A stretch of 64,000 nt of DNA from a virus: IMG/VR virus record IMGVR_UViG_3300047323_000675, one strand, 5' to 3'. The notes beneath the pieces were generated by a model. That model was not told the DNA's origin. It made no database searches and was given only the letters and a program-made list of their open reading frames with translations. The position numbers were made by a program, and so were the translations under genes. Shown here piece by piece: positions 4,548-24,854 of the stretch. The stretch's first letter is position 1; each line of letters starts with the position of its first letter.

Positions 4548-4994
4548 TTAATCAACTAACTCCCATTTAATTTCAGGTTCTACATAATTTTGAGTATCAT
4601 ACATCGTTTTTGCTAAGAACATTTTTTCAGGATTTTCTTTAATAATTTTATTGATAATATTTTGATACTTTTTTTGTTCATATAAATTCTCTTCAATATC
4701 TATACAAGCTGCAAATATTAGCCAAAATTTAGCTGCTAAAATTAATGTTAAAGGAAAGAAAAGTAGAATAATTTTAGCATTGTCTTTTATAGATAATAAT
4801 TCGTAATGAAATATTAAAAAACCGAATACAAAAATTAATCCAATACTGAAAAAAAGCTGAAGGATATTTTTTTTGATATTTAATAGGTGAACAGATTGTG
4901 AATCTCCTAACCTATTATTCTCATTATCTTTAAGGTAATAACCTTTTTTATCGTAACACATTTGATAGTCCTTCATTTGAAACAACTTCTCCAT
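4548..4994 (-). CDS. Membrane protein (2 TM)
   Basis: 148 aa with two hydrophobic stretches. Confidence 0.75.
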   Translation of the reverse strand: MEKLFQMKDYQMCYDKKGYYLKDNENNRLGDSQSVHLLNIKKNILQLFFSIGLIFVFGFLIFHYELLSIKDNAKIILLFFPLTLILAAKFWLIFAACIDIEENLYEQKKYQNIINKIIKENPEKMFLAKTMYDTQNYVEPEIKWELVD

Positions 4995-5039
4995 AAAAAG
5001 ACCATCTTATACGATAACCTTATTTTTTCAAGTATGAAA

Positions 5040-5498
5040 TTAATTAATCTTAAAATTTATTTTATTTCTTTTAGATGGATGATTGGCTTTTTCTAATGCA
5101 AGTTCATAAAAATAAGTCATATAATTTACAAAATCTTCTTCAGAAGATTGCATAGTTAAGTTTTTACCATGCTCATCATATTTTAATAAATCTACTAATT
5201 GATTTTTAAATGCTAGAGGATAAACTACTCCAGGAACATTAGCTCTGAAGGTTTCGGTATTGTGATCTTCAAATACATAATAGGTTTTTCCATTAGATTC
5301 AAAAAGAGCTATATCATCACTAAATGGATCGCACAAGACAGCTTCAGCTTCGCTTTTATCATCAAGAACTAAAGAACCATCTTTTTTCACATATGCATGG
5401 AAGTTTTGCATTGAACCTTCCAAGTAAAACAAGCCTTCAATCAAAAAATCATTTTCTGAAATTGCAGCTTTTTTACTGTCCTTATATGCTTTATCCAT
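5040..5498 (-). CDS. Hypothetical protein
   Basis: 152 aa, GGGAG SD. Confidence 0.8.
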   Translation of the reverse strand: MDKAYKDSKKAAISENDFLIEGLFYLEGSMQNFHAYVKKDGSLVLDDKSEAEAVLCDPFSDDIALFESNGKTYYVFEDHNTETFRANVPGVVYPLAFKNQLVDLLKYDEHGKNLTMQSSEEDFVNYMTYFYELALEKANHPSKRNKINFKIN

Positions 5499-5635
5499 AT
5501 TAATCTCCCAATTTAATAGTTATCAAATTATACCAAATTACCATCAAAAATGATAATAATTTACATTTAAATTAAATAAATATTGATTTCTTTAAATCAT
5601 TCCTTAGTCTATATTTAACATTTAAAGGATATGAT

Positions 5636-6214
5636 ATGGATAATTATACACATATAGGATTTATAAATAAAAATTTATCTATTAATGAAGCTATAATTCT
5701 TAATAGAATATCTAGTTATACTAGAACCAATATAGAAAATTATGTTTTAAATGAAATAAAGTTTCAACTTGCAGATTTAGAGTTTGTTTTAGACAATCGT
5801 AATGATGCACTGATGTTTTTTATTAGTAAAAGTGGAGAGATTTATTACCATAAAGTATTGGGAACTATTCAGAAAACTCTTTATAGGGAAGATACAGGAG
5901 CAGTTGTTACATTAAAAGTAATAACACAAAGTACTGCTCCAAATCGTGCAAGCAATAATATTACTAGTCTTGCTCTACCAGCTTATACTTTTGAAATTAT
6001 AGGGAAAAGGATGAGTCATTGGGATTTTATTAACAAAATGCATTTAGATAATCCTGAAGATAAAGTTTCAGCAGAGGATACACATACAAAAGGCATTCCC
6101 CTCCTTCAGCAAGATTATAAATTTAAATTATTTAATATTTTGCCTGATTTAAATATTAATTTTCCTATAACACAAATCAGGTTTAAAAAAGGTAGTTCAC
6201 CATATAAAATTTAA
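5636..6214 (+). CDS. Hypothetical protein
   Basis: 192 aa, AAGGA SD, followed by terminator. Confidence 0.8.
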   Translation: MDNYTHIGFINKNLSINEAIILNRISSYTRTNIENYVLNEIKFQLADLEFVLDNRNDALMFFISKSGEIYYHKVLGTIQKTLYREDTGAVVTLKVITQSTAPNRASNNITSLALPAYTFEIIGKRMSHWDFINKMHLDNPEDKVSAEDTHTKGIPLLQQDYKFKLFNILPDLNINFPITQIRFKKGSSPYKI

Positions 6215-6217
6215 AAG

Positions 6218-6245
6218 AAAGCCTACTTATGTAGGCTTATTTTTA
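6218..6245 (+). terminator. Intrinsic terminator
   Basis: AAGCCTAC-TTAT-GTAGGCTT then T-rich tract. Confidence 0.75.
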
Positions 6246-6258
6246 TTCATAATTAATT

Positions 6259-6288
6259 TTGACAATATTCTATTTTTAAATATATACT
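6259..6288 (+). promoter_or_regulatory. Sigma70-like promoter
   Basis: TTGACA-18-TATACT upstream of 6313. Confidence 0.55.
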
Positions 6289-6312
6289 CATTTAAATTAT
6301 TTTAATAATATT

Positions 6313-6699
6313 ATGAAAAAAGCAAAGCCATTCACATATAAACCAATTACTCCAATCATTCCTCAGTCATCTAAAAATCTGAAATATGATAATGGATTAG
6401 ATATTAAGCCTATTGTTAATCCTGCTCATCAATCAATGTATTTAAAAGAAGAAAATAAATTTCAACAATTTATTTATTTAAGTGATAAAGATATTGAAAA
6501 ATTGGGCAATTTCTATGTAGAAGATTTTTTTGTTGATGTTAAAAAGAAAAGAGGAGAAATTTGGTTATTTATAAATGATATTTATCTTGTCTTAAGTGAT
6601 TTAAATATTAAAATCATTGAGGAATTACAGAAGAAAAAATTAGATTTTTGTTTCTTTAAAGAAGATAAGACTTTTATTACTGCATTCAGATTGGCATAA
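6313..6699 (+). CDS. Hypothetical protein
   Basis: 128-aa ORF between promoter and terminator. Confidence 0.75.
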   Translation: MKKAKPFTYKPITPIIPQSSKNLKYDNGLDIKPIVNPAHQSMYLKEENKFQQFIYLSDKDIEKLGNFYVEDFFVDVKKKRGEIWLFINDIYLVLSDLNIKIIEELQKKKLDFCFFKEDKTFITAFRLA

Positions 6700-6701
6700 A
6701 T

Positions 6702-6722
6702 AAAGCTCCTTTAAAGAGCTTT
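6702..6722. terminator. Intrinsic terminator between convergent genes
   Basis: AAAGCTC-CTTTAAA-GAGCTTT. Confidence 0.65.
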
Positions 6723-6730
6723 ATGAATAT

Positions 6731-7243
6731 TTATTTACCGACTTCATTTAATTTACCTTTTGAATATAAAACTTTGACAATAACTTTTTTATTTGGAAAG
6801 TTTGGTGCATCATTTTCGCCCACTTCTAAAGCATCAAAAGAAATATTCATATCACCATTTTTATTTTCAATAGCTTTAGCTTTAAGTCCCTGCACACCTC
6901 GCCAACCTTTTCCACCAATAGGGATATTATCTACATAGGTATAATAAGGCACATTATTTTCATTAAAGTTTTCTTCAAATATTGCTAAGAATTGAGTATG
7001 ATTATTTCCACCACCAAATCCTTCCATTGTAAACACAGTAAGAACCAGTTTAGATGAACCTTTTCTATTTATGAAATCCACATAAGTAGCAGGAGTATAA
7101 GAGACAGCATAACCATCACTTAATAATTCACCTAATTTTTGCACTTGAATTGTAAGTTCTTTAGGGATTTGTTTTTCTTTAGTTGCTGCATGAGAAAGTA
7201 AACAAATTGAAGATAATAATAGTGATATTACGATTTTTTTCAT
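6731..7243 (-). CDS. Secreted/periplasmic protein
   Basis: Sec signal MKKIVISLLLSSICLLSHA. Confidence 0.8.
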   Translation of the reverse strand: MKKIVISLLLSSICLLSHAATKEKQIPKELTIQVQKLGELLSDGYAVSYTPATYVDFINRKGSSKLVLTVFTMEGFGGGNNHTQFLAIFEENFNENNVPYYTYVDNIPIGGKGWRGVQGLKAKAIENKNGDMNISFDALEVGENDAPNFPNKKVIVKVLYSKGKLNEVGK

Positions 7244-8350: not shown

Positions 8351-8743
8351 TTGGTGTTTTACTGTCCCATTACTAGTATGGCAAACAACGAAAGGACAGT
8401 TATGAAATTTCCTAATATTAAGGTTGGTGATGTAGTTGGGCTAAAAAGCGATAACCCGAATTCACTTCGTTATTACAAATATGAACGAGCTAAAGTGTTG
8501 GAGATAAATGATGATCAATTTAGATTGGAACGAGGATGGTTTTCAAAAGAATATGGTCGTAAAGGATTTAATATTGTCATTTCTCTTGAGGAACTAGAGG
8601 AAAATAATTCAATTTTTTACAGAGAGCGTACTGCAAATCGCTTATTAGAGAATATAAACAAAAAATTAAGCAATCTTGGAACTTCTCCAACTGATGTAGC
8701 ACTATTAGAGAATATAAATAACATTCTTAGTAGCTATACTTAA
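8351..8743 (+). CDS. Hypothetical protein (start likely ATG 8378 or 8402)
   Basis: ORF track start is TTG; downstream ATGs are in frame. Confidence 0.65.
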   Translation: MVFYCPITSMANNERTVMKFPNIKVGDVVGLKSDNPNSLRYYKYERAKVLEINDDQFRLERGWFSKEYGRKGFNIVISLEELEENNSIFYRERTANRLLENINKKLSNLGTSPTDVALLENINNILSSYT

Positions 8744-8896
8744 GAATTTTATAAAATATTTGTTTGAATGTATGGGAAGCCAATTCAAGAAAGCTCTGAT
8801 ATGAACCGTTTTTCAGAGGATTATTTAAATATTTTTAATGATAGTTATAAATGATATTGAACATTAATTTATTCTTGGTATCATTAATATAAATAC

Positions 8897-10690: not shown

Positions 10691-11431
10691 TTATACTTTA
10701 ATTTTTTTGTTTGTTTTTTCATTGCCAATTAAATCGTTTTCTAGTTCTATTTTTAGTAACTTCTTTTCATGATAATTATTAATAGCTATGACTCTTTGAT
10801 TCTTATCTCTATAGTTAGTCCAATAAGGTTCTTTGGCAGAGCAATTGATGAAAATACTTTCTACTTCTTCTAAATTAAAGGGCTTCCAATTAGATAAATC
10901 TTTATCAAAATTACTTCCGTAAAACATAATTTCCATACGATTTACTTTTGAAACATCCCAATTGCAGATATCGCCATTAAAATTAGAGTTGTTAAACATT
11001 CCTCGCATATCTTTTACATTAGATACATCCCATTTTGAAAGATCACCAATAAAACTGGAATTATAAAACATTTGCCTCATATTGTTTACTTTGGAAGTAT
11101 TCCATTTAGATATATCACCGTTAAATTTAGAATATTGAAACATACAATTCATATTCTTAACATTAGCGGTATTCCATTTTGATATATCCCCATTAAACAT
11201 AGAACCATAGAATAAATGACTCATATTAATAACATTAGAGGTGTCCCATTGAGAAATATCTCCATTAAAACATGAAGATACAGCTAAATAATCTGAAAAT
11301 AATTCGCTTAAGTCTCTAATATTACTTATGTCTATATGATTTAGATCACACTCTTTTCCATTAATTCTAATTTCATCTTGGATTAAGTTTACTAAATGTC
11401 TTTTATTTTGTGCAATTATTTTAGATTTCAT
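10691..11431 (-). CDS. DUF285/BspA-like repeat protein
   Basis: 24-aa FNGDISxWxxSxVxxMxxMF repeats; CDLNHID N-cap; tail NKKIKV. Confidence 0.9.
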   Translation of the reverse strand: MKSKIIAQNKRHLVNLIQDEIRINGKECDLNHIDISNIRDLSELFSDYLAVSSCFNGDISQWDTSNVINMSHLFYGSMFNGDISKWNTANVKNMNCMFQYSKFNGDISKWNTSKVNNMRQMFYNSSFIGDLSKWDVSNVKDMRGMFNNSNFNGDICNWDVSKVNRMEIMFYGSNFDKDLSNWKPFNLEEVESIFINCSAKEPYWTNYRDKNQRVIAINNYHEKKLLKIELENDLIGNEKTNKKIKV

Positions 11432-12150
11432 ATTTTTAATTTTTTTATTTCACTTTTATTATTATTCAAATCATGAATTAATTCATTTTTTAAACAATAT
11501 TTTTCAATAGCTAATTTTCGTTCTTCCGCAGTTTCAAAAACACTCCAATAAGGAAAATATGTAGACTTGTCGTGATACATAGCAAAACTATTTTCTAAAT
11601 TAATCGGTTTCCAACTAGATAAATTTTTATTAAATGGAGCTTCATAAAACATATATTCCATTTCTGTTACATTGGAAACATCCCATTGACTAATATCTTT
11701 ATTAAAAAAAGAACGCATAAACATTCTATTCATATTTTGAACATTTGATGTATTCCATTTAGAAATATCACCATTAAATTCAGAATCCATAAACATTCTA
11801 TTCATATTTTGAACATTTGATGTATTCCATTTGGAAATATCACCTTTAAATTTAGAATGAGCAAAAACAGAATACATGTTTGTTACTTTAGAAGTATCCC
11901 AATTACTTATGTCGCCATTAAAAATAGATGAACAAAATAAATTTTCCATATTCGTAACTTGAGAAGTGTCCCAATCAGATATATTTCCGTTAAAGTATTT
12001 GAATAAAATTTTACTAAATAAACCACTTATATTAGTAACTTCTTTTATATCAATATGATTTAAATCACATTCAAACCCATTAATGGTTATTGATTCCTGA
12101 ATTAAACGAATTAAATCATCTCTATCTTGAGCTATTACTTTTGGTTTCAT
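11428..12150 (-). CDS. DUF285/BspA-like repeat protein
   Basis: Same repeats; near-exact internal 72-bp duplication starting at 11716 and 11788; tail IKKLKI. Confidence 0.9.
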   Translation of the reverse strand: MKPKVIAQDRDDLIRLIQESITINGFECDLNHIDIKEVTNISGLFSKILFKYFNGNISDWDTSQVTNMENLFCSSIFNGDISNWDTSKVTNMYSVFAHSKFKGDISKWNTSNVQNMNRMFMDSEFNGDISKWNTSNVQNMNRMFMRSFFNKDISQWDVSNVTEMEYMFYEAPFNKNLSSWKPINLENSFAMYHDKSTYFPYWSVFETAEERKLAIEKYCLKNELIHDLNNNKSEIKKLKI

Positions 12151-12788
12151 ATCTTTAATTTTTTCTTTTCAACTTCGTTATTGATTAAATCTTTCTGTAA
12201 CTCTTTTTCTAACCAATATGAATCAATAGCTTTTCTTCTTTCTTCTTTATCTACAATTTTCGCCCAGTAAACATCAAAATCTAGCGGAAATGAAGGATCT
12301 ATATATAAATTATATGGCTTCCATTTAGATAAATCAAAATTTATATTTTTCTTTTCAAACATATTGTCCATATCACTAACTTTAGATACATCCCAATTAG
12401 AAATATCGCCATTAAATTTTGAATTATAAAACATAAGATACATATCTCTTACATTAGAAACATCCCAATTACTTATATCACCATTAAACTGAGAATTTTG
12501 AAACATTCTTTTCATACTTACTACTTTTGAAGTATTCCATTTTGAAATATCACCATTAAATCTAGAGGAAGTAAACATTTGATACATACTTTCTACATTT
12601 GATACATCCCATTCTGAAATATTACCATTAAATTTTTCAGTCCCAAGGGTGGCAAACAAATTTTCCATATCTGTAATATTGCTTACATCTATATGATTTA
12701 AATCACAATTATTACCACTTTGGTAAATTTCTTCAGCAATCAAATTATGTAAGTCTCTTTGATTTTCAGCTATAACTTTAGGTTTCAT
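12147..12788 (-). CDS. DUF285/BspA-like repeat protein
   Basis: Same repeats; tail EKKKLKI. Confidence 0.9.
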
Positions 12789-13705
12789 AATTTTAATTTT
12801 TTAATACTATTATTTTGTTTAATATTTAATTCTTTATCTAACCAATAATTATTAATAGAAATAACTATTTCTTTATTTGTTTTATAATTAGCCCAATACG
12901 GAACATTTGACACATTGTTTTCAAAAGCTCTATCACTTCTTTTCAAACTATAAGGCTTCCAATTATTTAAATTTCCATTAAACTGTGCATCTGAAAAAAT
13001 ATTATCCATATATTCAACATTAGAAACATCCCAATTTGATATATCTTTGTTAAATTGAGATTCCTGAAACATATAGCTCATGTCTGTCACATTAGATACA
13101 TCCCACTTTGATATATCTCCGTTAAAAACAGAGCCGTAAAAAATAGCATTCATACTCTTAACATTAGAAACATTCCAATTACTAATGTCACCTGTGAATT
13201 GAGAACCTGAAAACATAATACTCATACTTTCAACATTAGAAACATCCCATTTACTAATGTCACCATTAAATTTTGATTTACCAAACATTATTCCCATTCT
13301 TTTAACACGAGAGACATCCCAATTAGAAATGTCTCCATTAAATTCAGAATTACTAAACATACTACTCATATCATCAACTTTAGAAACATTCCATTTTGAT
13401 AAATCACCATTAAATTTACTAGCACGGAACATATCTGACATAATTTTTACATTTGAAACATCCCAATTACTAATATCACCATTAAATTCAGAGCCAAGAA
13501 ATAAGTTTTTCATAGTATTTACATTTTTTGTATTCCACTTTGAAATATCACCATTAAAATTTGATTGATAAAATAAATCGCTTAAATCTGTAATATTAGA
13601 AATATCAATATGATTTAAATCGCATTCAAGACCATTTAAACTAATTTCATTTTGAATTAAGTCTATTAAACTTCTTTTATCTTTAGCTACTATAGTTGGT
13701 TTCAT
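12785..13705 (-). CDS. DUF285/BspA-like repeat protein
   Basis: About 9 repeats; tail SIKKLKL. Confidence 0.9.
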
Positions 13706-14415
13706 ATCTTTAATTTTTTCTGTTTGATTTCACTATCATTTAAATCTTCATCCAATTCTTTTTTCATCCAATAAGCATTAATAGCTTTACTTCGTTCATC
13801 TTTATCTTCTATTTCAGCCCAATAGGGAATAGGTGCGGAGCATTCAAAAAAAGCAAAATCTAAATACTGTAAATCATACGGTTCCCAGTTAGATAAATCA
13901 CCATTAAATTTAGAATTTGAGAAAGCAGACTTCATATTAATAACATTAGACACATCCCAATTACTAATATCGCCATTAAAGTCACTTTCTTCAAACATTT
14001 CATATATATGCTTAACACTAGATGTATTCCATTTAGATAAGTCCCCGTTAAATGTTGTATCTGCAAACATTCTATTCATTGCAATAACATTTTCTACATT
14101 CCAATTACTAATATCACGATTAAATGGTGAACCTTTAAACATATTTCTCATATCAACTACTTTTGATACATTCCATTTAGAGATATCACCATTAAAATCA
14201 GAAAATTCAAACATGTAACCCATATGGTCAACATTACTAACATTCCATTCAGAAATATCTCCATTAAATTCTGAACAAGTAAATAAATAGCTCATATTTG
14301 TAATATTACTTACATCAATATGATTCAAAGAACACTCATTACCATTTAATTCAATCTCTTTTTGGATTAACTCTTTTAGATGCTCTTTATTTTTAGCAGT
14401 AATAGTCGTTTTCAT
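13702..14415 (-). CDS. DUF285/BspA-like repeat protein
   Basis: Same repeats; tail KQKKLKI. Confidence 0.9.
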
Positions 14416-15125
14416 ATTTTAGGCTTTTTATTTTTAATATCATTATTAATTAATTCACTATCCAACTGTTTTTGTAATGAATAAGCATCAATAGCTTTTT
14501 TTCTTTTATCTTTATTCTTAATTTTAGCCCAATATGGGATTGGAGATTCACACATATCAAAAATACCATTTATATTTCCTAAATTATATGGTCGCCATTC
14601 TGATACATCTTTTGTGAATAATGACTTATAAAAGATCATTTTCATATCTTCAACTTTAGATACATCCCAATTAGATATATCGCCATTAAATTTAGCTCTA
14701 CAAAACATACTATATAAACTTGTTACTTCTGATACATTCCATTTAGAAATGTCACCATTAAAATTAGAATCACTAAACATACTAGACATTTTTTGTACAT
14801 TACTAACATCCCAATTGCTTATCTCTTTATTAAACTGTGAACAAGCAAACATGTTATCCATCTTTTTTACATTGGACACATTCCATTTACTGATATCTCC
14901 ATCAAATTTTGAATTTGCAAACATCCCATTCATATCCATTACTTTTGATACATCCCATTGAGATATGTCTCCATTGAATTCAGAGCCAAAAAATAATCCT
15001 TTCATATCTATAATATTAGAAACATCAATATGATTTAAATTACATTTATTTCCATTTAATGATATTCCCTGTTCAATCAGTTCTGTTAAATGTTCTTTAT
15101 TTTGAGCGATTATGGTTGGTTTCAT
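14412..15125 (-). CDS. DUF285/BspA-like repeat protein
   Basis: Same repeats; tail KNKKPKI. Confidence 0.9.
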
Positions 15126-15145
15126 ATTTTTAATTTATATTTTCT

Positions 15146-16294
15146 TCACATTTTTAATTTTTTTGGTTTAATTACATCATTATTATTTAATTCTTTGTGC
15201 AATTCCTTTTGTAATAAATAAGCTCCGATAGCTCTTTTTCTAGCTCCAACATCGTTAAATTTAGACCAATAAGGAATTGGTGCTTCAGATAGTTCAAATA
15301 TGTTAGTTATATCTATTGCACGATATGGTTTCCAATTAGTTAAATTTTTATTAAATTTTGATTTCTCAAACATACAACTCATATTGTTAACATTTGATAT
15401 TTTCCATTTCGATAAATCTCCGTTAAACTCAGAATGAGAAAACATCTTTTTCATATTTCTAACTTTTGATACATTCCAATTTGAAATATCACCATTAAAT
15501 TTTGACTGCTCAAACATATGGCTCATATCTGTCACCTTTGATACATTCCAATTACTAATATCTCCATTAAATTCTGAACAATTAAATGTACATGCCATAC
15601 TTATAACATTAGACACATCCCAGTTACTTATATCACCATTAAATTCTGTTTTTTCAAACATGCTTGCTATATTTACAACATTAGACACATTCCATTTACT
15701 TAAATCTTTATTAAATTTAGATTCTTTAAACATTTCATACATAGAAATGACATGAGAAGTATCCCATTTAGAAATATCACCATTAAATTCTGATTTACTA
15801 AACATACCAATTAAATGTGTTGCTTTAGAAAGAACCCAATTGGAAATATCGCCATTAAATTTAGAATTAGAGAACATTTCATTTACAGTAAAAGCATTGG
15901 CAAGATTCCATTTAGATATATCTCCATTAAATATAGAATTTGAAAAAATTCTATCTAGATTAATTACATTAGAAACATTCCATTTTGATATATCACCATT
16001 AAATTGAGAATTCATAAACATTTCAATCATACCTTTTACATTAGACACATCCCATTCTGATATGTCACCGTTAAATTGAGAATTACAGAACATTCCACTC
16101 ATATCCTCTACATTGGAAACATTCCATTTACTAATATCACCATTGAATTGTGTTCCTCTAAATAGATGCCTCATTTGAGTAATATTGGATACATCAATAT
16201 GATTCAAAGAACATTCATTACCATTTATTGCAATTTCATTTTCAATTAAATTATGTAAATGCTTATTATCTTTAGCTATAATTATATTTTTCAT
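15146..16294 (-). CDS. DUF285/BspA-like repeat protein
   Basis: About 12 repeats; tail KPKKLKM. Confidence 0.9.
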
Positions 16295-16421
16295 ATTTTT
16301 AATTTTTTCTTATTATTACTATTATTTTAGTTTTCATCTTCTTATTAAATTATAAAATATTAAATTGAGTTTACAAAATAATTATGATAAAGTAATCACA
16401 ATATAATAAAGAAAGGAACAA

Positions 16422-16625
16422 ATGACTAAATTTTATATGGATATAAGCCACAACTATGCATCATTTAAATTAAACGATAAAACCATATTTATAGATAGTT
16501 TTGATAACTTAAATTTTGAAGTAAGAGTAGGAACGATAGAAAAGCCAGAATATCTAGTTAATATTGAAGCTAAGTCTACTGAAGAACTAAATAAAAAGTT
16601 ATCTGAATTAGCTGAACAAATTTGA
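16422..16625 (+). CDS. Small hypothetical protein
   Basis: 67 aa, AAGGA SD, terminator downstream. Confidence 0.75.
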   Translation: MTKFYMDISHNYASFKLNDKTIFIDSFDNLNFEVRVGTIEKPEYLVNIEAKSTEELNKKLSELAEQI

Positions 16626-16636
16626 GATAGAAAAAT

Positions 16637-16660
16637 AAAAGCCCATGAAGGGCTTTTTTT
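16637..16660. terminator. Intrinsic terminator between convergent genes
   Basis: AAAAGCCC-ATGAA-GGGCTTTTTTT. Confidence 0.8.
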
Positions 16661-16708
16661 GTTTAATTGTTTATAATTTTACCTTTTCTGCTTTTTTCAT
16701 ACTAAGTA

Positions 16709-17083
16709 TTATTTTTTAAAAGATTCACGAACCTTTTGGTCAGCTTTAACTAAATCATCTAAAAATTTATCACATCGTTCTTTTTTAGCCTCACAAAGAA
16801 GATCCCTTTTAATTGAAACTAGTCCATCATTTCCAATATTTTCTGAAACTGTCATTTTTACTACTGAGGGATATATTGGAGATTCTTTAGGAACAAAAGC
16901 CCATATTATATGATTAGTATCATCCGTAGCCATAATTTGACCATTAATATTTCTCATTTCAATTCTCTTATTAGCTTTAAGTACAGAAAAAGCTTCCGAA
17001 ACAGATTTATATTCAATTTTAGGTTGAGCATGAACAGATGAATATAAACATAATAATAAAGCTAATAATTTAATTTTTTTCAT
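16709..17083 (-). CDS. Secreted/periplasmic protein
   Basis: Sec signal ending VHA; C-terminal LCEAKKERC Cys pair. Confidence 0.8.
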   Translation of the reverse strand: MKKIKLLALLLCLYSSVHAQPKIEYKSVSEAFSVLKANKRIEMRNINGQIMATDDTNHIIWAFVPKESPIYPSVVKMTVSENIGNDGLVSIKRDLLCEAKKERCDKFLDDLVKADQKVRESFKK

Positions 17084-17132
17084 AATTTATCTTTAGAAAA
17101 TTAAATAATAATTAACAAAATAATATAAATAA

Positions 17133-17921
17133 TCAAATCTTTACATTTTTTCTACTCATCTCACTTATAGCAAGATCTTTATTCAATTCTTTATATAAAT
17201 TGAAAGAGTCAATCGCTTGTATTCTTTTCTCTTGTTCTTCAATCTCTGCCCAATAAGGAATATTTTTATAATTATTATCAAATATATTTTCAATAGAATT
17301 TAATGCATATGGTTTCCAATCAGATAAATCAGTATTAATTTTTGATTCAAAAAACATATATCTCATAATTTTTACTTTGGATACATTCCATTTAGAAATA
17401 TCACAATTCATTTGTGATTTACTGAACATTCCATCCATATTTTGGACATTAGAGACATCCCATTGACTTAAATTTGTAGAAAAATTAGTGCAAAAAAACA
17501 TACTACTCATATTTATTACATTAGATGTATTCCATTTAGAAAGGTCTTGGTTAAACTCACTATTCCAAAAAAACATACAATTCATACATTCAACATTTGA
17601 AACATTCCATTGAGAAATATTTCCATTAAATTTAGAACTCCAAAACATTTGACTCATTGTTTTAACTTTAGAAACATCCCAATTACTGATATCTCCATTA
17701 AATTTAGAATTGATGAACATTTCATTCATATTCTCAACATTTGAAACATCCCATTTAGAAATGTCACCATTAAATTTTGTGTTTGCAAATAACTCACTCA
17801 TATCTGTAATATTAGAAACATCGATATGATTTAAATCACAATTACCACCAAATTTTCTTCGTGCTTTTTTAATCAATTGTTTTAAGTGTTCTTTATCTTT
17901 AGCGATAATGGTAATGTTCAT
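17133..17921 (-). CDS. DUF285/BspA-like repeat protein
   Basis: Same repeats; tail SRKNVKI. Confidence 0.9.
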
Positions 17922-17985
17922 ATATTATGATTAGCAAATTTTATGAAATTATAACAAATTTACTTTAAATAAGAAACTAAAAAAT

Positions 17986-18014
17986 TTGACAATATTTTTC
18001 TTAATATATATGAT
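17986..18014 (+). promoter_or_regulatory. Sigma70-like promoter
   Basis: TTGACA-17-TATGAT upstream of 18038. Confidence 0.65.
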
Positions 18015-18037
18015 TTAATAAAACTACAGGACTTAAA

Positions 18038-18331
18038 ATGAATAAGCAAGAACAATTAGCATGGGCTAAAAAAGAATTGAAAGCAATAATGGATGATTCT
18101 AATAAAACCCGTTATAAAGCACTTGTATCTACACCTAATGATTTATTGTCCCTTGAAGAAGCTTTTCTTTTTATAGCCAATTCAAAAGCACAAGCATATA
18201 AATCATCTATGCTAGGCAACTATCAACAATCTTTTAATTGGGTTAATGAAAATTCCGATATGGCCAAAAGTATTCTTCTACTACAGCAAAATATAATTGC
18301 TATTAATGATGTTGCCATGCTTCCTGATTAA
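18038..18331 (+). CDS. Hypothetical protein
   Basis: 97 aa, AGGA SD, own promoter and terminator. Confidence 0.8.
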   Translation: MNKQEQLAWAKKELKAIMDDSNKTRYKALVSTPNDLLSLEEAFLFIANSKAQAYKSSMLGNYQQSFNWVNENSDMAKSILLLQQNIIAINDVAMLPD

Positions 18332-18341
18332 TATATAAAAG

Positions 18342-18366
18342 AAAAGCCCCTAGATGGGGCTTTTTT
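18342..18366. terminator. Intrinsic terminator between convergent genes
   Basis: AAAAGCCCC-TAGAT-GGGGCTTTTTT. Confidence 0.85.
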
Positions 18367-18368
18367 CA

Positions 18369-18503
18369 TCAAATCTTACGCTGAACATCTTTTGCTAATT
18401 CTTGCACTTTTTCACCACCCTTTTGAACATCCTGACCAATACCACTAATAGTATTGCAACCAGTTAATCCTACTAACAATAATATCGCAAATATTTTTTT
18501 CAT
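18369..18503 (-). CDS. Entericidin A/B family lipoprotein (not in ORF track)
   Basis: Hand translation MKKIFAILLLVGLTGCNTISGIGQDVQKGGEKVQELAKDVQRKI; lipobox LTG-C, CNT..G.GQD motif; AAGGAG SD. Confidence 0.85.
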   Translation of the reverse strand: MKKIFAILLLVGLTGCNTISGIGQDVQKGGEKVQELAKDVQRKI

Positions 18504-18615
18504 CAAAGACTCCTTAGTTATAATGAAAATATAAAATATTTTTATAGAAATGCAATTATTGTAATCATATTCTTTTTTGGTAAAATATTATAAATAATAT
18601 ATTTAGAGGAAAAAA

Positions 18616-19305
18616 ATGGCAAAGAAAATAAAGCATCCATATATTTTAGATACAACTTATCAAGTCTATGAAAATGGTCAGTTTGATGAATTAGAAAATG
18701 TTATAGTTAAAATTTATGAATACACAGATAAAGCTGAGGAAGAACAATTAGATCTTGACGAAAGAAAAGATTACTTGGAAATTAGAATGAAAAGAATTAT
18801 CCCAAGCAGAGAAATAAACGATGTATTAGACATTGCAGATAGTGACAGTGCTGAACTTTTACATGCAATAGCTCCAATTTTAAAAGAAGGTCATGAAGAA
18901 TTCATTGCTAGTGCTTTAAAAATTGATGACTATATATTATTAGATAAATATATTTATATTGATACTATTGAAAAACATGGTGATTTCTTAGAACAATCTA
19001 TTCCTGCTGCAATCTCTAGAGCGTTAACTGTAATAACAAAAGGTTTAGAACCTGAAGATTGGGTTGCAGTTATGTATGAGGCTCACACAATATCTGAACA
19101 AAATAATGAAGTTGATATGAAGAGGAATAAAGTTGGTTCTATACTTAAAAACTTAGGATTCCTTGCTTTACCTGAGGTAGTATCTAATGTAGAAAAAGAG
19201 CATAATGTTCTTAATATTGTAGGTGGAAATACCTTAAATAAAAATTTAGAGTATTCTCCTGAATTGCTAGAAGAAAAGAAAAAAGATAAAAAAATTAAGC
19301 CTTAA
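18616..19305 (+). CDS. Acidic hypothetical protein
   Basis: 229 aa, GAGGA SD; ends KKKDKKIKP. Confidence 0.8.
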   Translation: MAKKIKHPYILDTTYQVYENGQFDELENVIVKIYEYTDKAEEEQLDLDERKDYLEIRMKRIIPSREINDVLDIADSDSAELLHAIAPILKEGHEEFIASALKIDDYILLDKYIYIDTIEKHGDFLEQSIPAAISRALTVITKGLEPEDWVAVMYEAHTISEQNNEVDMKRNKVGSILKNLGFLALPEVVSNVEKEHNVLNIVGGNTLNKNLEYSPELLEEKKKDKKIKP

Positions 19306-19307
19306 AT

Positions 19308-19328
19308 AAAGCCCCTTAATGGGGCTTT
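19308..19328. terminator. Intrinsic terminator between convergent genes
   Basis: AAAGCCCC-TTAAT-GGGGCTTT. Confidence 0.8.
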
Positions 19329-19329
19329 A

Positions 19330-20121
19330 TTATATTTTTATTTTTTTAAGTTGAATATCATTTTTAATCAAATCATTATCCAACTCCTTATTTAACCAAT
19401 ATTTATCAATAGCTTTTTTTCTATCTTCGTTATCATCATAATTAGCCCAATAAGGAATTGGAGCAATAGACTCTTCAAATATTGTTAATGCAGCTTCAAA
19501 CATTAATAAATATGGTTTCCAATTAGACAAGTCTCCATTAAATTCTGATCTAGAAAATAATCCTGGAGCATTTTGTAAGCTAAAAACATTCCAATTACTT
19601 AAATTGCCATTAAATTTAGAATCAGAAAACATAGAATTCATATTTTTAACTTTTGACACATCCCATTGACTTATATCACCATTGAATTTTGAAGCCCAAA
19701 ACATGGCTATCATATCTTTTACACTAGATGTATTCCATTTAGAAATATCACCATTAAATTCAGAATGAGAAAACATATGTCCCATATGATGCACTTGTGA
19801 TACATCCCATTTAGATATCTCTCTATTAAATTCAGAGTTGTTAAACATTCCTATCATACTCTGAACATTAATCACATTCCATTGGCTTATATCACCATTG
19901 AATTTAGAACTATCAAACATGCAATTCATGTTAATAACATTAGAGACATCCCATTGGCTTATGTCACCATTAAATTTTGAATCATAAAATAACCTTTCCA
20001 TATCCTCTATCTTTGAAACATCAATATGATTCAACTCACATTGATTTCCATTAAGTGCAATCTCATTATTAATTAATTGTTCTAAATGTTCTTTATTTAT
20101 TGCGATAACTTTAGGTTTCAT
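19330..20121 (-). CDS. DUF285/BspA-like repeat protein
   Basis: Same repeats; tail QLKKIKI. Confidence 0.9.
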
Positions 20122-21902: not shown

Positions 21903-22067
21903 ATGAAATTTGAAATATATAAAGATAAAAATGGAGAATGGCGTTGGAGAATTAAAGCAGCTAATGGAAAAATAATAGCTGATTCATCAGAGGGATATAA
22001 AAATAAACAAGATGCAATAAATATGATAAATGCTATTGTTGCAATTAAAGAATATAATGAAATATAA
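21903..22067 (+). CDS. YegP/DUF1508 family protein (not in ORF track)
   Basis: Hand translation MKFEIYKDKNGEWRWRIKAANGKIIADSSEGYKNKQDAINMINAIVAIKEYNEI; AAGGAG SD. Confidence 0.85.
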   Translation: MKFEIYKDKNGEWRWRIKAANGKIIADSSEGYKNKQDAINMINAIVAIKEYNEI

Positions 22068-22086: not shown

Positions 22087-22110
22087 AAAGCCTACATTTC
22101 TGTAGGCTTT
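22087..22110. terminator. Intrinsic terminator between convergent genes
   Basis: AAAGCCTACA-TTTC-TGTAGGCTTT. Confidence 0.8.
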
Positions 22111-22420: not shown

Positions 22421-22495
22421 TGGCATCGCGTACGAGAATCGAACTCGTATCATTTGGTTGAAGGCCAAATATTCTCACCATTAAACTAACGCGAT
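22421..22495 (-). tRNA. tRNA-Glu(UUC), atypical C33
   Basis: Acceptor ATCGCGT/ACGCGAT, G73, CCA; anticodon arm TTTGG-CC TTC AA-CCAAA. Confidence 0.8.
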
Positions 22496-22507
22496 ATTAA
22501 ATCTATT

Positions 22508-22601
22508 AAGAGTTTGCGGAGTCGAACCGCTTCTCTGCCTGCAAGCAGCGCATGAAGCCGACTAGTGATTGCAGTCACCAATACGCACATGCTGAACTCT
22601 T
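22508..22601 (-). ncRNA. tRNA-like RNA with expanded D-loop and shrunken anticodon arm, no CCA
   Basis: AAGAGTT/AACTCTT acceptor, GCATG/CATGC D-stem enclosing an extra hairpin, CTGC-TTGCAG-GCAG, GCGG-TTCGACT-CCGC T-arm. Confidence 0.55.
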
Positions 22602-22606
22602 TAACT

Positions 22607-22682
22607 TGGTGTCTCTAGAGGGATTTGAACCCTACATCTCCGGTGGGATTACGCGGCGATTTAACCATTAATCTATAGAGAC
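22607..22682 (-). tRNA. tRNA with degenerate anticodon arm (undetermined/pseudo)
   Basis: GTCTCTA/TAGAGAC acceptor, intact D and T arms, CCA; anticodon arm CCGCG-TAATCCC-ACCGG has only 3 bp. Confidence 0.7.
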
Positions 22683-22688
22683 AAAACT

Positions 22689-22772
22689 TGGTGGATGAGG
22701 TTGGATTTGAACCAACGAACCCGAAGGAAATGATTTACAGTCATCGCGCTTTAGCCACTTGCATACTCATCC
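22689..22772 (-). tRNA. tRNA-Tyr(GUA)
   Basis: GGATGAG/CTCATCC, A73, CCA; GATGA-CT GTA AA-TCATT; variable arm. Confidence 0.95.
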
Positions 22773-22798
22773 ATTAAAACTATTTACTGATTAAATCT

Positions 22799-22876
22799 TG
22801 GTATCCAGTATGGGGGTTGAACCCATTTTCTCGGATTGAGAATCCGATTTCCTAACCTACCGTAGAAGAACTGGAT
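22799..22876 (-). tRNA. tRNA-Glu(CUC)
   Basis: ATCCAGT/ACTGGAT, CCA; TCGGA-TT CTC AA-TCCGA. Confidence 0.85.
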
Positions 22877-22900
22877 ATAGAACTATTTACTGCATAATTT

Positions 22901-22985
22901 TGGTGGATCAGGTAGGATTCGAACCTACTCATCCGAAGAAACGGGGTTACAGCCCATCACACCTCTCCAACTGTGTCGCTGATCC
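22901..22985 (-). tRNA. tRNA-Tyr(GUA)
   Basis: GGATCAG/CTGATCC, A73, CCA; ATGGG-CT GTA AC-CCCGT; variable arm. Confidence 0.9.
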
Positions 22986-23020
22986 AAATTTAAAAATTCT
23001 TTCAAAAAAATACTTAAATT

Positions 23021-23102
23021 TGGTGGATGAGGTAGGGATCGAACCTACTTGCCGAAGCCACGGAGTTACAGTCCGCTGCCCTACCATTAGAGCATCTCAT
23101 CC
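23021..23102 (-). tRNA. tRNA-Tyr(GUA)
   Basis: GGATGAG/CTCATCC, CCA; GCGGA-CT GTA AC-TCCGT; variable arm GC-TTCG-GC. Confidence 0.95.
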
Positions 23103-23107
23103 AAAAA

Positions 23108-23216
23108 TTAAGTGTATTTGCGTAGACGGAAAATCCGTTCTTCGGGATGGGTTAAGGCTCGTAGCCCCGATTCTGCAAATCCCCATTTACTAGCCAGGAG
23201 ATAAACTCACACTTAA
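23108..23216 (-). ncRNA. Unidentified structured RNA within the tRNA array
   Basis: GC-rich 109 nt closed by TTAAGTGT/ACACTTAA with several internal helices; preceded by the same leader motif as the tRNAs. Confidence 0.5.
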
Positions 23217-23235
23217 AAACTTTACTACTACAATT

Positions 23236-23310
23236 TGGTATCGTGTATGGGATTCGAACCCATGTCCAAGGAGTGAAAGTCCAAGTATCCTTCCAGTAGA
23301 TGAACACGAT
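23236..23310 (-). tRNA. tRNA-Glu(UUC), weak anticodon stem
   Basis: ATCGTGT/ACACGAT, CCA; TTGGA-CT TTC AC-TCCTT (two U-U mismatches). Confidence 0.75.
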
Positions 23311-23336
23311 ATAAAACTATTTTTATTACTTAAAAT

Positions 23337-23414
23337 TGGTGTCCCCAACGGGATTTGAACCCGTGTTTTCGGATTGAAAGTCCGACGATCTCGACCAAAC
23401 TAATCTATGAGGAC
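23337..23414 (-). tRNA. tRNA-Glu(UUC)
   Basis: GTCCTCA/TGGGGAC, CCA; TCGGA-CT TTC AA-TCCGA. Confidence 0.9.
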
Positions 23415-23440
23415 GATGAAACTTTTTACTACTTTTAAAC

Positions 23441-23525
23441 TGGTGGAGATGGATGGATTTGAACCACCGCGCCTTTTGGAAACTGATTTACAGTCAGTCG
23501 CATTCGACCCCTCTGCCACATCTCC
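23441..23525 (-). tRNA. tRNA-Tyr(GUA)
   Basis: GGAGATG/CATCTCC, CCA; ACTGA-CT GTA AA-TCAGT; variable arm. Confidence 0.95.
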
Positions 23526-23548
23526 ATTAAAACTTTTACTACTTAATT

Positions 23549-23625
23549 TGGCACACCCAACGAGGATTGAACTCGTATTTTCGGATTGAAAGTCCGATGT
23601 TCTCGACCAATTAAACTATGGGTGT
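23549..23625 (-). tRNA. tRNA-Glu(UUC)
   Basis: ACACCCA/TGGGTGT, G73, CCA; TCGGA-CT TTC AA-TCCGA. Confidence 0.9.
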
Positions 23626-23647
23626 AAAACTTTTTACTACATTATAT

Positions 23648-23723
23648 TGGAGCACCTAACGGGGATCGAACCCGTATTTTCAGATTGAAAGTCTGACTAT
23701 CTAACCAATTAATATATAGGTGC
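23648..23723 (-). tRNA. tRNA-Glu(UUC)
   Basis: GCACCTA/TAGGTGC, U73, CCA; TCAGA-CT TTC AA-TCTGA. Confidence 0.9.
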
Positions 23724-23729
23724 TTTGTT

Positions 23730-23805
23730 TGGTATGGGTAACGGGATTTGAACCCGTGTCTGCGGATTGAAAGTCCGCTGATCTATCCAACTAATCTATA
23801 CCCAT
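23730..23805 (-). tRNA. tRNA-Glu(UUC)
   Basis: ATGGGTA/TACCCAT, CCA; GCGGA-CT TTC AA-TCCGC. Confidence 0.9.
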
Positions 23806-23853
23806 GTAAATATTTACAAATTTAAAAACTCTTTATTTAAAAGTGTTTAAATT

Positions 23854-23937
23854 TGGCGTTCCGTGGGGGATTCGAACCCCAGTCTTTCGACATCACCTTG
23901 AAAGGGTGAGGACGGTTGCCGGCCGTCAACACGGAAC
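23854..23937 (-). tRNA. Non-canonical 8/4 tRNA with UUC anticodon and long variable arm (allo-tRNA-like)
   Basis: GTTCCGTG/CACGGAAC 8-bp acceptor, GGGG/CCCC 4-bp T-stem, 5-bp D-stem, TCACC-CT TTC AA-GGTGA, GTC-GAAA-GAC V-arm, G73, CCA. Confidence 0.85.
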
Positions 23938-23942
23938 ATATT

Positions 23943-24026
23943 TGGTGGATGAGGTTGGATTTGAACCAACGAACCCGAAGGAAATGATTTACAGTCATCG
24001 CGCTTTAGCCACTTGCATACTCATCC
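23943..24026 (-). tRNA. tRNA-Tyr(GUA), identical to 22689..22772
   Basis: 84/84 nt identical by direct comparison. Confidence 0.95.
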
Positions 24027-24053
24027 ATATTCACAACATTTACTACTTTAATT

Positions 24054-24139
24054 TGGTGGGGCAGGTAGGAATCGAACCTACAAGCCGTAAGGCGACCGCT
24101 TTACAGGCGGCTGATTTCACCACACTTACCATCTACCCC
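24054..24139 (-). tRNA. tRNA-Tyr(GUA), first gene of the array
   Basis: GGGGTAG/CTGCCCC, A73, CCA; GCCGC-CT GTA AA-GCGGT; variable arm. Confidence 0.9.
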
Positions 24140-24166
24140 AAATTTGCTACTTTTACTACGCTCAAT

Positions 24167-24207
24167 TTTTAAAGAACAATACTACTCATGTTGTCGTTTT
24201 GACAACA
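24167..24207 (-). promoter_or_regulatory. boxB-like hairpin plus boxA-like antitermination site
   Basis: TGTTGTC-AAAAC-GACAACA then TGTTCTTTAAAA (E. coli rrn boxA is TGCTCTTTAACA). Confidence 0.55.
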
Positions 24208-24210
24208 CTA

Positions 24211-24246
24211 CAAAAACAAAAAAGGCACCAATTTCTCGGTGCCTTT
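24211..24246 (-). terminator. Attenuator terminator (3:4 hairpin)
   Basis: AAAGGCACC-GAGAAATT-GGTGCCTTT followed by TTTGTTTTTG, between leader ORF and tRNA array. Confidence 0.85.
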
Positions 24247-24460: not shown

Positions 24461-24489
24461 ATTATGCCTCAGTTGCAATTCCGTGTCAA
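24461..24489 (-). promoter_or_regulatory. Near-consensus sigma70 promoter of the leader/tRNA operon
   Basis: TTGACA-17 nt-CATAAT, AT-rich UP-like region upstream. Confidence 0.85.
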
Positions 24490-24605
24490 TAGGTTTCTTC
24501 AAAATATTTTTATTGTTTCAAAAAAACAACACATGACACTTGTTGCTCAACTGCATTCAATGAAGTGAATTATATATTAAATTTCAATTAGGTGTCAAAC
24601 AATAT

Positions 24606-24854
24606 TTATAATTTACTATGTTTGGAATATACATGATGAGAAAAGCCAGCAAACATAAAAAATGAGATAACAGCCAAGCAAACACATATAAGAATTACTA
24701 CTGCTTGAAAAAAAGAATAATTCCATGTTTTCATCATTATTACTAAAACCATTAAAATTGATATAGCACAATATCCCATAACCATAAGCATAATTCCAAT
24801 TGGACATAAAGCGAATAATTTTAATTCATACCAAAAATTTTTTAGTTTATTCAT
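24606..24854 (-). CDS. Small membrane protein (2 TM)
   Basis: 82 aa, hydrophobic. Confidence 0.65.
   Translation of the reverse strand: MNKLKNFWYELKLFALCPIGIMLMVMGYCAISILMVLVIMMKTWNYSFFQAVVILICVCLAVISFFMFAGFSHHVYSKHSKL

Follow-up and report, generated by a model that had tools for sequence, protein, structure and literature searches.

A jumbo-phage-type array of tyrosine and glutamate tRNA genes behind a Tyr/Glu-rich leader in a bacterial replicon: a candidate inducible tRNA reserve

The DNA analysed here, referred to as the window, is a stretch of 64,000 nt of the IMG/VR record IMGVR_UViG_3300047323_000675. It has a GC content of 25% and consists mostly of arrays of ankyrin and DUF285 paralogues, between which lies a dense array of tRNA genes at positions 22421-24139. 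The 14 tRNA genes that ARAGORN found in the 64 kb are confined to this cluster and share the minus strand. Six are tRNA-Tyr(GUA), six are ordinary tRNA-Glu(UUC), one is tRNA-Glu(CUC), and one is an odd tRNA of 84 nt with the anticodon UUC. An array of only two specificities had been described in the first-pass annotation, which was made from the letters alone, and a census of the kind suggested there, made over the 64-kb window, recovered it in full: 14 genes for Tyr and Glu only were found by ARAGORN and Rfam, and every tRNA of the window lies in the one cluster. By our own arithmetic, 14 tRNAs would fall into two specificities with a chance of about 2e-12 in an even draw from 20 specificities, and each of the phage arrays with at least eight tRNAs used for comparison carries at least six. 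In the order of transcription the array comprises:

24054-24139, minus strand: tRNA-Tyr(GUA), Y1, 86 nt (ARAGORN, Rfam)
23943-24026, minus strand: tRNA-Tyr(GUA), Y2, identical to Y13 (ARAGORN)
23854-23937, minus strand: X3, long-variable-arm tRNA of the 8/4 type, anticodon UUC, G73, allo-tRNA-like (fold, covariance model)
23730-23805, minus strand: tRNA-Glu(UUC), E4 (ARAGORN; Rfam, 72 bits)
23648-23723, minus strand: tRNA-Glu(UUC), E5, U73 (ARAGORN, Rfam)
23549-23625, minus strand: tRNA-Glu(UUC), E6, G73 (ARAGORN, Rfam)
23441-23525, minus strand: tRNA-Tyr(GUA), Y7 (ARAGORN, Rfam)
23337-23414, minus strand: tRNA-Glu(UUC), E8, acceptor start GUCC, the most conventional copy (ARAGORN, Rfam)
23236-23310, minus strand: tRNA-Glu(UUC), E9, two U-U mismatches in the anticodon stem, loop ending in C38 (ARAGORN)
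23108-23216, minus strand: G+C-rich non-tRNA filler of about 109 nt in a tRNA-sized slot, no significant fold
23021-23102, minus strand: tRNA-Tyr(GUA), Y10, lowest Rfam score (31 bits) (ARAGORN, Rfam)
22901-22985, minus strand: tRNA-Tyr(GUA), Y11 (ARAGORN, Rfam)
22799-22876, minus strand: tRNA-Glu(CUC), E12 (ARAGORN; Rfam, 25.6 bits)
22689-22772, minus strand: tRNA-Tyr(GUA), Y13, identical to Y2 (ARAGORN)
22607-22682, minus strand: P14, Glu-like tRNA body with CCA kept and anticodon arm broken (Rfam, 46 bits; relaxed ARAGORN)
22507-22601, minus strand: P15, tRNA-like RNA of 95 nt without CCA (relaxed ARAGORN; fold z = -2.2)
22421-22495, minus strand: tRNA-Glu(UUC), E16, C33 in the anticodon loop, G73 (ARAGORN; Rfam, 65.6 bits)

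Together with two tRNA-like elements, the array holds 16 units in 1.72 kb of a single strand, with six to eight copies per specificity and a density of about 8 tRNA genes per kb (14 tRNAs; 16 if the tRNA-like units are counted). The gathering score of the Rfam tRNA model was reached by 12 of the 14 tRNAs and by the tRNA-like element at 22610-22682. The Glu(CUC) copy E12 stayed just below the 29-bit cut-off, and the odd UUC copy X3 had no match to this model. The tRNA-like elements P14 and P15 were detected with relaxed ARAGORN settings, and neither has a credible anticodon. P15 is built from an acceptor-like stem of 7 bp, a long central arm with bulges and the 7-nt loop CUGCAAU, a small hairpin, and a T arm of 4 bp with the loop UUCGACU; it has no relative among the fetched loci. 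The 109-nt element at 23108-23216 was considered as a structured RNA and rejected (fold z = -0.03, no match in Rfam, no relative in the fetched loci). Its likeness to the post-leader region of a phage array described below (L152) was weak and not convincing.

For an estimate of their integrity, all copies were divided into cloverleaf segments and the base pairs tallied. The 13 canonical copies have a full cloverleaf with a perfect 7-bp acceptor stem, a 5-bp T stem, and an encoded CCA, and the 5-bp anticodon stem is present in all of them except E9, with its two U-U mismatches; 13 of the 16 units are intact. At the same time the copies differ widely. Apart from Y2 and Y13, pairwise identity within one specificity is 58-78%, and a single stem position can be occupied by up to five different pair types (Watson-Crick or G-U) across the copies. 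Acceptor stems begin with A or G, and N73 is A, U, or G among the Glu copies, while it is A in all Tyr copies. The Tyr anticodon loops read CUGUAAA (four of six copies) or CUGUAAC, the former being the anticodon loop of Escherichia coli tRNA-Tyr. Most Glu loops are the ordinary CUUUCAA; the exceptions include CCUUCAA (with C33) in the copy at 22421 and CUUUCAC in the copy at 23236. The details of acceptor starts, N73, odd anticodon loops, and U-U mismatches listed in the first-pass annotation are all present in the sequence.

This variation spares a fixed set of features. All six Tyr copies have G1-C72, G2-C71, A73, the anticodon GUA, a 5-bp anticodon stem, and a class II variable arm of 11-13 nt, and with their 7/5 cloverleaf they agree with bacterial tRNA-Tyr. 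All seven class I Glu copies share U13-G22, A46 as the third variable-loop residue, a 4-nt variable loop without residue 47, and A37 next to UUC or CUC; C33 and U32 occur in one copy each. Further positions considered for bacterial tRNA-Glu, namely G1-C72, U2-A71, and U11-A24, are mixed among the Glu copies (G1-C72 in 2/7, A1-U72 in 5/7, U2-A71 in 5/7, U11-A24 in 4/7). E. coli glutamyl-tRNA synthetase (GluRS) reportedly recognizes U13-G22, A46, and the absence of residue 47, which form the augmented D helix, and we take the invariant features of both groups to match the identity sets of bacterial tyrosyl-tRNA synthetase (TyrRS) and GluRS. Because stems vary while these presumed identity features stay fixed, the genes appear to have been kept chargeable as the rest of their sequence drifted or was exchanged. 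Judged by sequence, the copies are maintained, chargeable-looking genes rather than decay products.

The array is framed by expression signals on the same strand:

24569-24598, minus strand: promoter P1, TTGACA, 18-nt spacer, TATAAT (12/12)
24461-24489, minus strand: promoter P2, TTGACA, 17-nt spacer, CATAAT (11/12), conserved in the related contig L006
24279-24413, minus strand: leader open reading frame (ORF) of 44 codons, 133/135 nt identical in L006
24221-24246, minus strand: intrinsic terminator between leader and first tRNA, 11-bp stem and U run
24140-24220, minus strand: post-terminator leader, near-invariant relative to L006
22119-22346, minus strand: orf75, protein of 75 amino acids (phrog_20427, E = 6e-32), starting 74 nt past the last tRNA
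22087-22110, minus strand: intrinsic terminator closing the operon after orf75

P1 and P2 are near-consensus sigma-70 promoters. A Shine-Dalgarno-like box, GAGAGA, lies upstream of the leader ORF, whose codons 7-13 (TAT TAT TAT GAA CGA GAG GAA) read Tyr-Tyr-Tyr-Glu-Arg-Glu-Glu (YYYEREE), and the terminator region between this ORF and the first tRNA has a fold z-score of -4.75. Most units of the array are separated by a spacer motif of the approximate form (A/T)GTAGTAAAAGTTTTA. It precedes nine units, including the first, and its first copy (GTAGTAAAAG) is contained in the post-terminator leader. No promoter-like site was detected on the array strand in the interior of the array, and orf75 is probably co-transcribed with the tRNAs. 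Promoters, leader, terminator, the 14 tRNAs and two tRNA-like RNAs, orf75, and the final terminator form one predicted operon. The order of its elements and their conservation fit a leader-peptide attenuator, in which a short ORF with a ribosome-binding site and a regulatory codon run is followed by an intrinsic terminator.

Conservation was assessed against L006, a related metagenome contig (GC 29%) whose protein from the radical-SAM gene neighbouring the array is 88% identical; it is the sole close relative compared and the one close contig that the single metagenome scan returned. A search of genome contigs found nothing closer than 55%, and the leader pattern had no match in IMG/VR. In L006, one of the two changes in the leader ORF is GAA to GAG, the terminator stem is preserved through altered pairs, and the 80 nt from the terminator to the first tRNA are near-invariant, whereas the promoter-distal DNA is variable. 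As leader and terminator are kept in L006, the architecture of a leader-controlled operon is present and conserved in both. Y10 is identical to an L006 tRNA in 80 of 82 nt (97.6%), against about 85% in the flanks. Y1 has its acceptor and T arms in common with the L006 orthologue, but the D arm, the anticodon stem, and the variable arm differ by replacement. This mosaic indicates that the copies recombine.

The odd copy X3 belongs to a small family of its own. Its minimum free energy (MFE) fold, with an ensemble frequency of 0.55, has stems of 8 bp (acceptor), 5 bp (D), 5 bp (anticodon), 3 bp (variable), and 4 bp (T), the D loop has 7 nt, residue 73 is G, and U13-G22 is absent. Homologues with the same fold and a UUC anticodon occur on two other IMG/VR contigs, namely one of 85 nt in locus L141 and two in L153. 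Three of the four family members have the same anticodon-loop context. Compensatory changes are found in the acceptor stem, anticodon stem, and variable arm, the stem of the variable arm has 3-4 bp, and N73 is G (X3), A, U, and A. A covariance model of the four members scored them at 95-106 bits (X3, 103); across 2 Mb of loci, nothing else scored above 44 bits. Pattern scans of IMG/VR for 8/4 UUC tRNAs returned only the same two contigs. X3 resembles the allo-tRNAs of the 8/4 and 9/3 types (Mukai et al., 2017; PMC5389517) in its 8-bp acceptor, 4-bp T, and 5-bp D stems, the long variable arm, G73, and a non-serine anticodon. The X3 family differs from them in its variable N73, its location in phage-type arrays (three of the four members are on IMG/VR viral contigs), and a 7-nt D loop instead of a tetraloop. 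We infer that it leans toward an unusual glutamate tRNA charged by GluRS rather than a serine missense tRNA charged by seryl-tRNA synthetase, for which G73 or U73 and a variable arm read by this enzyme would be expected. N73 varies within the family as it does in the class I Glu copies, and in L141 the 8/4 tRNA is the sole UUC decoder in an array of 23 tRNAs that otherwise lacks only Ala and Asn. In L153 (positions 4696-6934), long-variable-arm tRNAs for Lys, Asp, Asn, Ile, and Glu (two) lie beside ordinary copies of matching anticodon, apparently as a systematic second set, class-II-like, for amino acids whose synthetases read the anticodon.

Several genes and motifs link the locus to the tRNA arrays of jumbo phages and megaphages, here represented by Rak2-like phages, XacN1, Lak, and the IMG/VR loci L141 and L152 (both from the phage contig IMGVR_UViG_3300036715_000569), L143 (another IMG/VR contig), and L153 (IMGVR_UViG_3300031420_000495). 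The GenBank phages with orf75 homologues are nearly all jumbo phages of at least 340 kb. In 9 of 10 IMG/VR loci and in L153 the homologue is located between tRNA genes (among others at L141:5989-6240, L143:5989-6225, and L153:5484-5702), and it mostly starts within about 120 nt past a tRNA on the same strand, as in the window. The orf75 family has the conserved motifs ELWYKTECGF, FPVP, and LFMRYIRK. A structure model of the protein shows three strands and a long helix (predicted local distance difference test score, pLDDT, 75); it had no match in the PDB at E <= 0.001, and Atlas returned unnamed clusters only. The following gene on the minus strand also has relatives in phage arrays:

20779-21759, minus strand: protein of 326 amino acids, whose N-terminal approximately 170 residues recur in phage tRNA arrays

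This N-terminal domain is found within the arrays of a Lak megaphage, L141 (46%), and L143 (52%), and the gene may possibly be of the homing-endonuclease type. In L141, the spacer motif precedes tRNA-Trp, and a related form follows the terminator. In L152, an ORF of 52 codons that contains all 20 amino acids and the terminator following it (8649-8868; terminator z = -4.36) lie ahead of the array, which has 23 tRNAs of 18 specificities and several strong promoter-like sites upstream of the ORF. Jumbo-phage arrays and the window array thus have in common orf75 directly after a tRNA, encoded CCA, the N-terminal domain of the 326-residue protein, the spacer motif GTAGTAAA, and the 8/4 tRNA(UUC), and L152 also shares the order of leader ORF and terminator ahead of the array. 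The phage arrays differ in their breadth, most amino acids being served by one or two genes, and in the all-20 leader of L152, whereas the window array lies in a bacterial replicon and has six to eight copies of each of two specificities behind a Tyr/Glu-centred leader. By these homologies, the DNA between about 20.8 and 24.6 kb is of phage ancestry, a jumbo-phage-type tRNA island that now resides in a bacterial replicon.

The low GC content of the window and its ankyrin and DUF285 arrays prompted us to consider a eukaryotic giant virus as its source. This origin was rejected because the Tyr tRNAs are of the bacterial class II type with CCA, promoters and terminators are of bacterial type, the DNA upstream of genes shows no enrichment of AAAATTGA, and pilT, a pilin gene, and an RNase R-like gene lie beside the radical-SAM gene of relatives. 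The latter arrangement is found in a more distant relative (L007/L036, GC 27%), where the same radical-SAM gene adjoins pilT, a type IV pilin gene, and the RNase R-like gene; its PilT is closest to proteins of Pseudomonadota. From the class II, CCA-encoding tRNAs, the bacterial signals, and the pilT-linked relatives it follows that the replicon is bacterial with Pseudomonadota-like relatives, and that the island itself is of the jumbo-phage type. The window contains no gene for ribosomal proteins, replication, or aminoacyl-tRNA synthetases.

Among published systems, the tRNA operon (trn) of Anabaena sp. PCC 7120 is the closest in organization. This L-array was horizontally acquired, has a homing-endonuclease neighbour, and stays silent unless translation is disturbed (Santamaria-Gomez et al., 2021; PMC8421152). 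The window array shares with it the dense same-strand operon, a foreign, phage-like origin, a neighbour of the homing-endonuclease type, plausibly a supernumerary position relative to a housekeeping set, and perhaps the silence until translation is impaired, which for the window array is only proposed. Periodicity is rare among L-arrays, and their specificities are many (Anabaena has 23 functional tRNAs), whereas the window array has two specificities and a repeated spacer. Of the features of L-arrays, it has the same-strand arrangement, the horizontal acquisition, and the phage-array-linked flanks, but not the many specificities or the non-periodic layout. Control differs as well, being attributed to promoter repeats and a presumed repressor in Anabaena, while leader ORF and terminator are the candidate elements in the window. 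Compared with the definition of a tRNA array unit (at least 20 genes and at least two per kb; PMC4758250), the locus has the density but, with 14 genes, not the number.

Leader-peptide attenuators of amino-acid operons (trpL, hisL, thrL, and the ilv leaders) offer the nearest parallel for regulation. There, too, an intrinsic terminator is preceded by a short translated ORF whose run of regulatory codons corresponds to what the operon makes. Those operons encode biosynthetic enzymes, however, and the window unit encodes tRNAs. No published example of tRNA genes under leader-peptide control turned up in a literature search. The first-pass annotation had placed an attenuator upstream of the array. 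The strong promoters, the Tyr/Glu-rich leader, the terminator, and their conservation in L006 agree with this, but MFE folding did not recover the antiterminator.

On the basis of these observations, we give about an even chance to the interpretation that a phage-type tRNA island has been co-opted as an inducible reserve of tRNA-Tyr and tRNA-Glu. Most transcripts would normally end at the first terminator. Slow reading of Tyr or Glu codons by the ribosome on the leader would increase read-through, presumably by way of an antiterminator, and thereby supply the cell with a pulse of additional Tyr and Glu isodecoders, which the TyrRS and GluRS of the host could charge. Candidate depleters of the two tRNAs would be tRNA-cutting toxins from competitors, phages, or a eukaryotic host. 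The array probably grew through duplication in place of a unit of spacer motif and tRNA, and its copies are reshuffled by recombination; the island has been narrowed to two decoding specificities. Switching, charging, and trigger are all inferred. The strongest argument for a role of these tRNAs in decoding, and for a leader that senses how well they are supplied, is the match of leader and output: in the phage, a leader with all amino acids precedes a broad array, and in the window a Tyr/Glu leader precedes a Tyr/Glu array.

Several points weigh against this interpretation. When the RNA was refolded with leader nt 1-39 or 1-51 masked to mimic a stalled ribosome, the terminator persisted in the MFE structure and no antiterminator prevailed. 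A weak promoter-like site (9/12) in the post-terminator leader might bypass the switch. The comparison within the lineage depends on a single close relative, L006, whose contig ends after the first two tRNAs, and the distant relative L007/L036 has no array beside its radical-SAM gene. The census of tRNA genes covers the 64-kb window, so that other Tyr and Glu genes forming a housekeeping set are only presumed. Moreover, extra tRNA is of no help when the amino acid and not the tRNA is in short supply.

Codon demand fails to account for the choice of Tyr and Glu. When load is counted per tRNA species, Glu ranks third or fourth, matched or surpassed by Lys, Asn, and Leu(UAA), and Tyr is about eighth, in agreement with the first-pass annotation, where codon supply had already been dismissed. 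The effector arrays are only slightly richer in both residues (Glu 7.7%, Tyr 4.9%) than the housekeeping-like proteins of a relative (6.5% and 3.9%). A different answer would be a library of nuclease-escaping tRNAs, in which diversity itself is selected so that some Tyr and Glu isodecoders, including the 8/4 body charged via its anticodon, survive toxins that cut or modify tRNAs, and the operon serves as a codon-specific response to tRNA damage. This is coherent insofar as extra tRNA helps only when tRNA itself is lost, and it would account for invariant identity features amid widely varying stems, acceptor sequences, and Glu N73, for the exchange of the D arm, anticodon stem, and variable arm of Y1 relative to L006 with acceptor and T arms kept, and for the pairing of ordinary and long-arm tRNAs for Glu, Lys, Asp, Asn, and Ile in L153. 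Precedents exist in phage tRNAs that counter PtuAB, PrrC, and PARIS (PMC11555353, PMC10264068, PMC11464382); the example given in the first-pass annotation, T5 tRNA-Tyr against the PtuAB of retron-Eco7, holds (PMC11555353), and T5 tRNA-Lys acts against PARIS (PMC11464382). Such anti-defence tRNAs share with the window array the extra phage-type genes, the potential for decoding rescue, and the involvement of Tyr. They are phage-borne, however, are expressed during infection, and confer resistance through the anticodon loop or sheer supply, whereas the window array has a bacterial carrier, mostly canonical loops, and no known cognate nuclease. Because most loops are canonical, escape changes like the anticodon-loop variants reported for phage tRNAs (PMC10264068) are not evident. 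In addition, the window has no tRNA nuclease gene, the literature yielded no toxin that targets both Tyr and Glu, two copies (Y2 and Y13) are identical, and old duplicates under structural constraint would reach similar identities without an arms race. Selection for diversity as such is possible but unlikely on this evidence. A related and more specific proposal, that the domesticated, leader-gated array is a codon-specific tRNA-damage response with diversified, toxin-escaping isodecoders among which the 8/4 tRNA is charged by GluRS, also seems unlikely to us.

Three further explanations are less probable. If the array were the only source of tRNA-Tyr and tRNA-Glu in the lineage, the native genes having been lost, the leader would be homeostatic and the copies would serve dosage. 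This would explain equally well the purifying selection, the retention of identity features, the match between leader and tRNAs, and the conservation in L006, but an array located among accessory effector genes in a window devoid of core genes, flanked by phage-type genes, composed of heterogeneous copies including an 8/4 tRNA and degraded members, and preceded by a strong terminator that would be unusual ahead of essential genes makes such a replacement rather improbable. A decaying phage island, kept by chance, partly dead, and without adaptive role, is suggested by the degraded or non-canonical P14 and P15, the slot with unstructured filler, the weakened anticodon stem of E9, and the score of the Glu(CUC) copy below the Rfam cut-off. 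We consider it very unlikely, as CCA and invariant identity features mark 13 of the 16 units as intact, Y10 is conserved well above its flanks (97.6% against about 85%), leader, terminator, and post-terminator leader are near-invariant, and random loss from a broad array would not yield two multi-copy specificities. The lowest probability is assigned to uses outside the ribosome, either in a pathway dependent on aminoacyl-tRNA (for example Glu-tRNA-dependent dehydration of peptides, cyclodipeptides, or the C5 pathway) or as tRNA-derived small RNAs delivered to a eukaryotic host together with the effectors encoded nearby. The position inside a huge effector-like island and the diverse bodies, which would yield diverse fragments, as well as the presence of non-decoding tRNA-like members would suit these uses. 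Yet scans of proteins within about 20 kb of the array against Pfam, NCBIfam, and PHROG gave no match of the LanB, CDPS, PEARL, or GluTR type, the Tyr and Glu codons in the leader speak for a role in translation, and synthetase identity features are conserved in all copies. The idea in the first-pass annotation that tRNA-Glu might feed C5 tetrapyrrole synthesis finds no support, since neither hemA nor hemL is located nearby and the Tyr copies would be left unexplained.

A working switch in the proposed Tyr/Glu reserve would add tRNA genes to the targets of trp-style attenuation and indicate that reserve tRNAs are kept by bacteria and not by phages alone. Regulation of individual tRNAs on demand is barely documented in bacteria, the L-array of Anabaena, under transcriptional control, being the main published case. 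The locus offers a compact, testable example, because the proposed sensor codons match the output tRNAs and the phage with the all-20 leader can serve as a control. Should the codon-specific damage response be true instead, the 8/4 tRNA(UUC) would represent a new natural class of glutamate tRNA. 8/4 tRNAs with Glu anticodons would be useful for studies of tRNA identity and for the engineering of orthogonal tRNAs. The 75-residue protein encoded by orf75 deserves attention as a consistent resident of phage tRNA arrays that lacks a known fold.

The remaining genes close to the operon are:

21903-22067, plus strand: YegP/DUF1508-like protein of 54 amino acids, matching NCBIfam HVO_2922 and several PHROGs
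24606-24854, minus strand: hydrophobic ORF of 82 amino acids upstream of the promoters, with three ankyrin genes in its place in L006
24995-25879, plus strand: RlmN/Cfr-like short radical-SAM protein (phrog_27142), divergent neighbour, conserved across the lineage

The 82-residue ORF is probably outside the unit. The short radical-SAM protein occurs in jumbo phages and many bacteria and is encoded next to pilT in the lineage; homologues at 70-88% identity exist. It lacks the N-terminal domain. Where RlmN has Cys118, seven residues ahead of the first cysteine of the cluster, the protein carries a Tyr that is shared without exception by 36 homologues. A partnership of its gene with tRNA arrays was considered and rejected, as only about one quarter of the phage loci have at least three tRNAs within 10 kb. 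Owing to this weak linkage and to its chromosomal, pilT-adjacent position in the lineage, the gene was left out of the operon.

Farther away, the minus strand carries two very large tandem arrays of paralogues (10691-20121 and 27177-63783), one with about 10 DUF285 genes and the other with about 45 genes for ankyrin-repeat proteins. In L006, an insertion of three ankyrin genes separates the radical-SAM gene from the tRNA leader, which indicates that such genes move within the lineage. The ankyrin array of the window is interrupted by a TnpB-like gene on the opposite strand (49817-51601, plus strand, 594 amino acids), a member of a family of RNA-guided endonucleases. An ATP-grasp protein of the R2K clade (3686-4513, plus strand) matches phrog_7313 over its full length and is another phage-type gene in this bacterial island.

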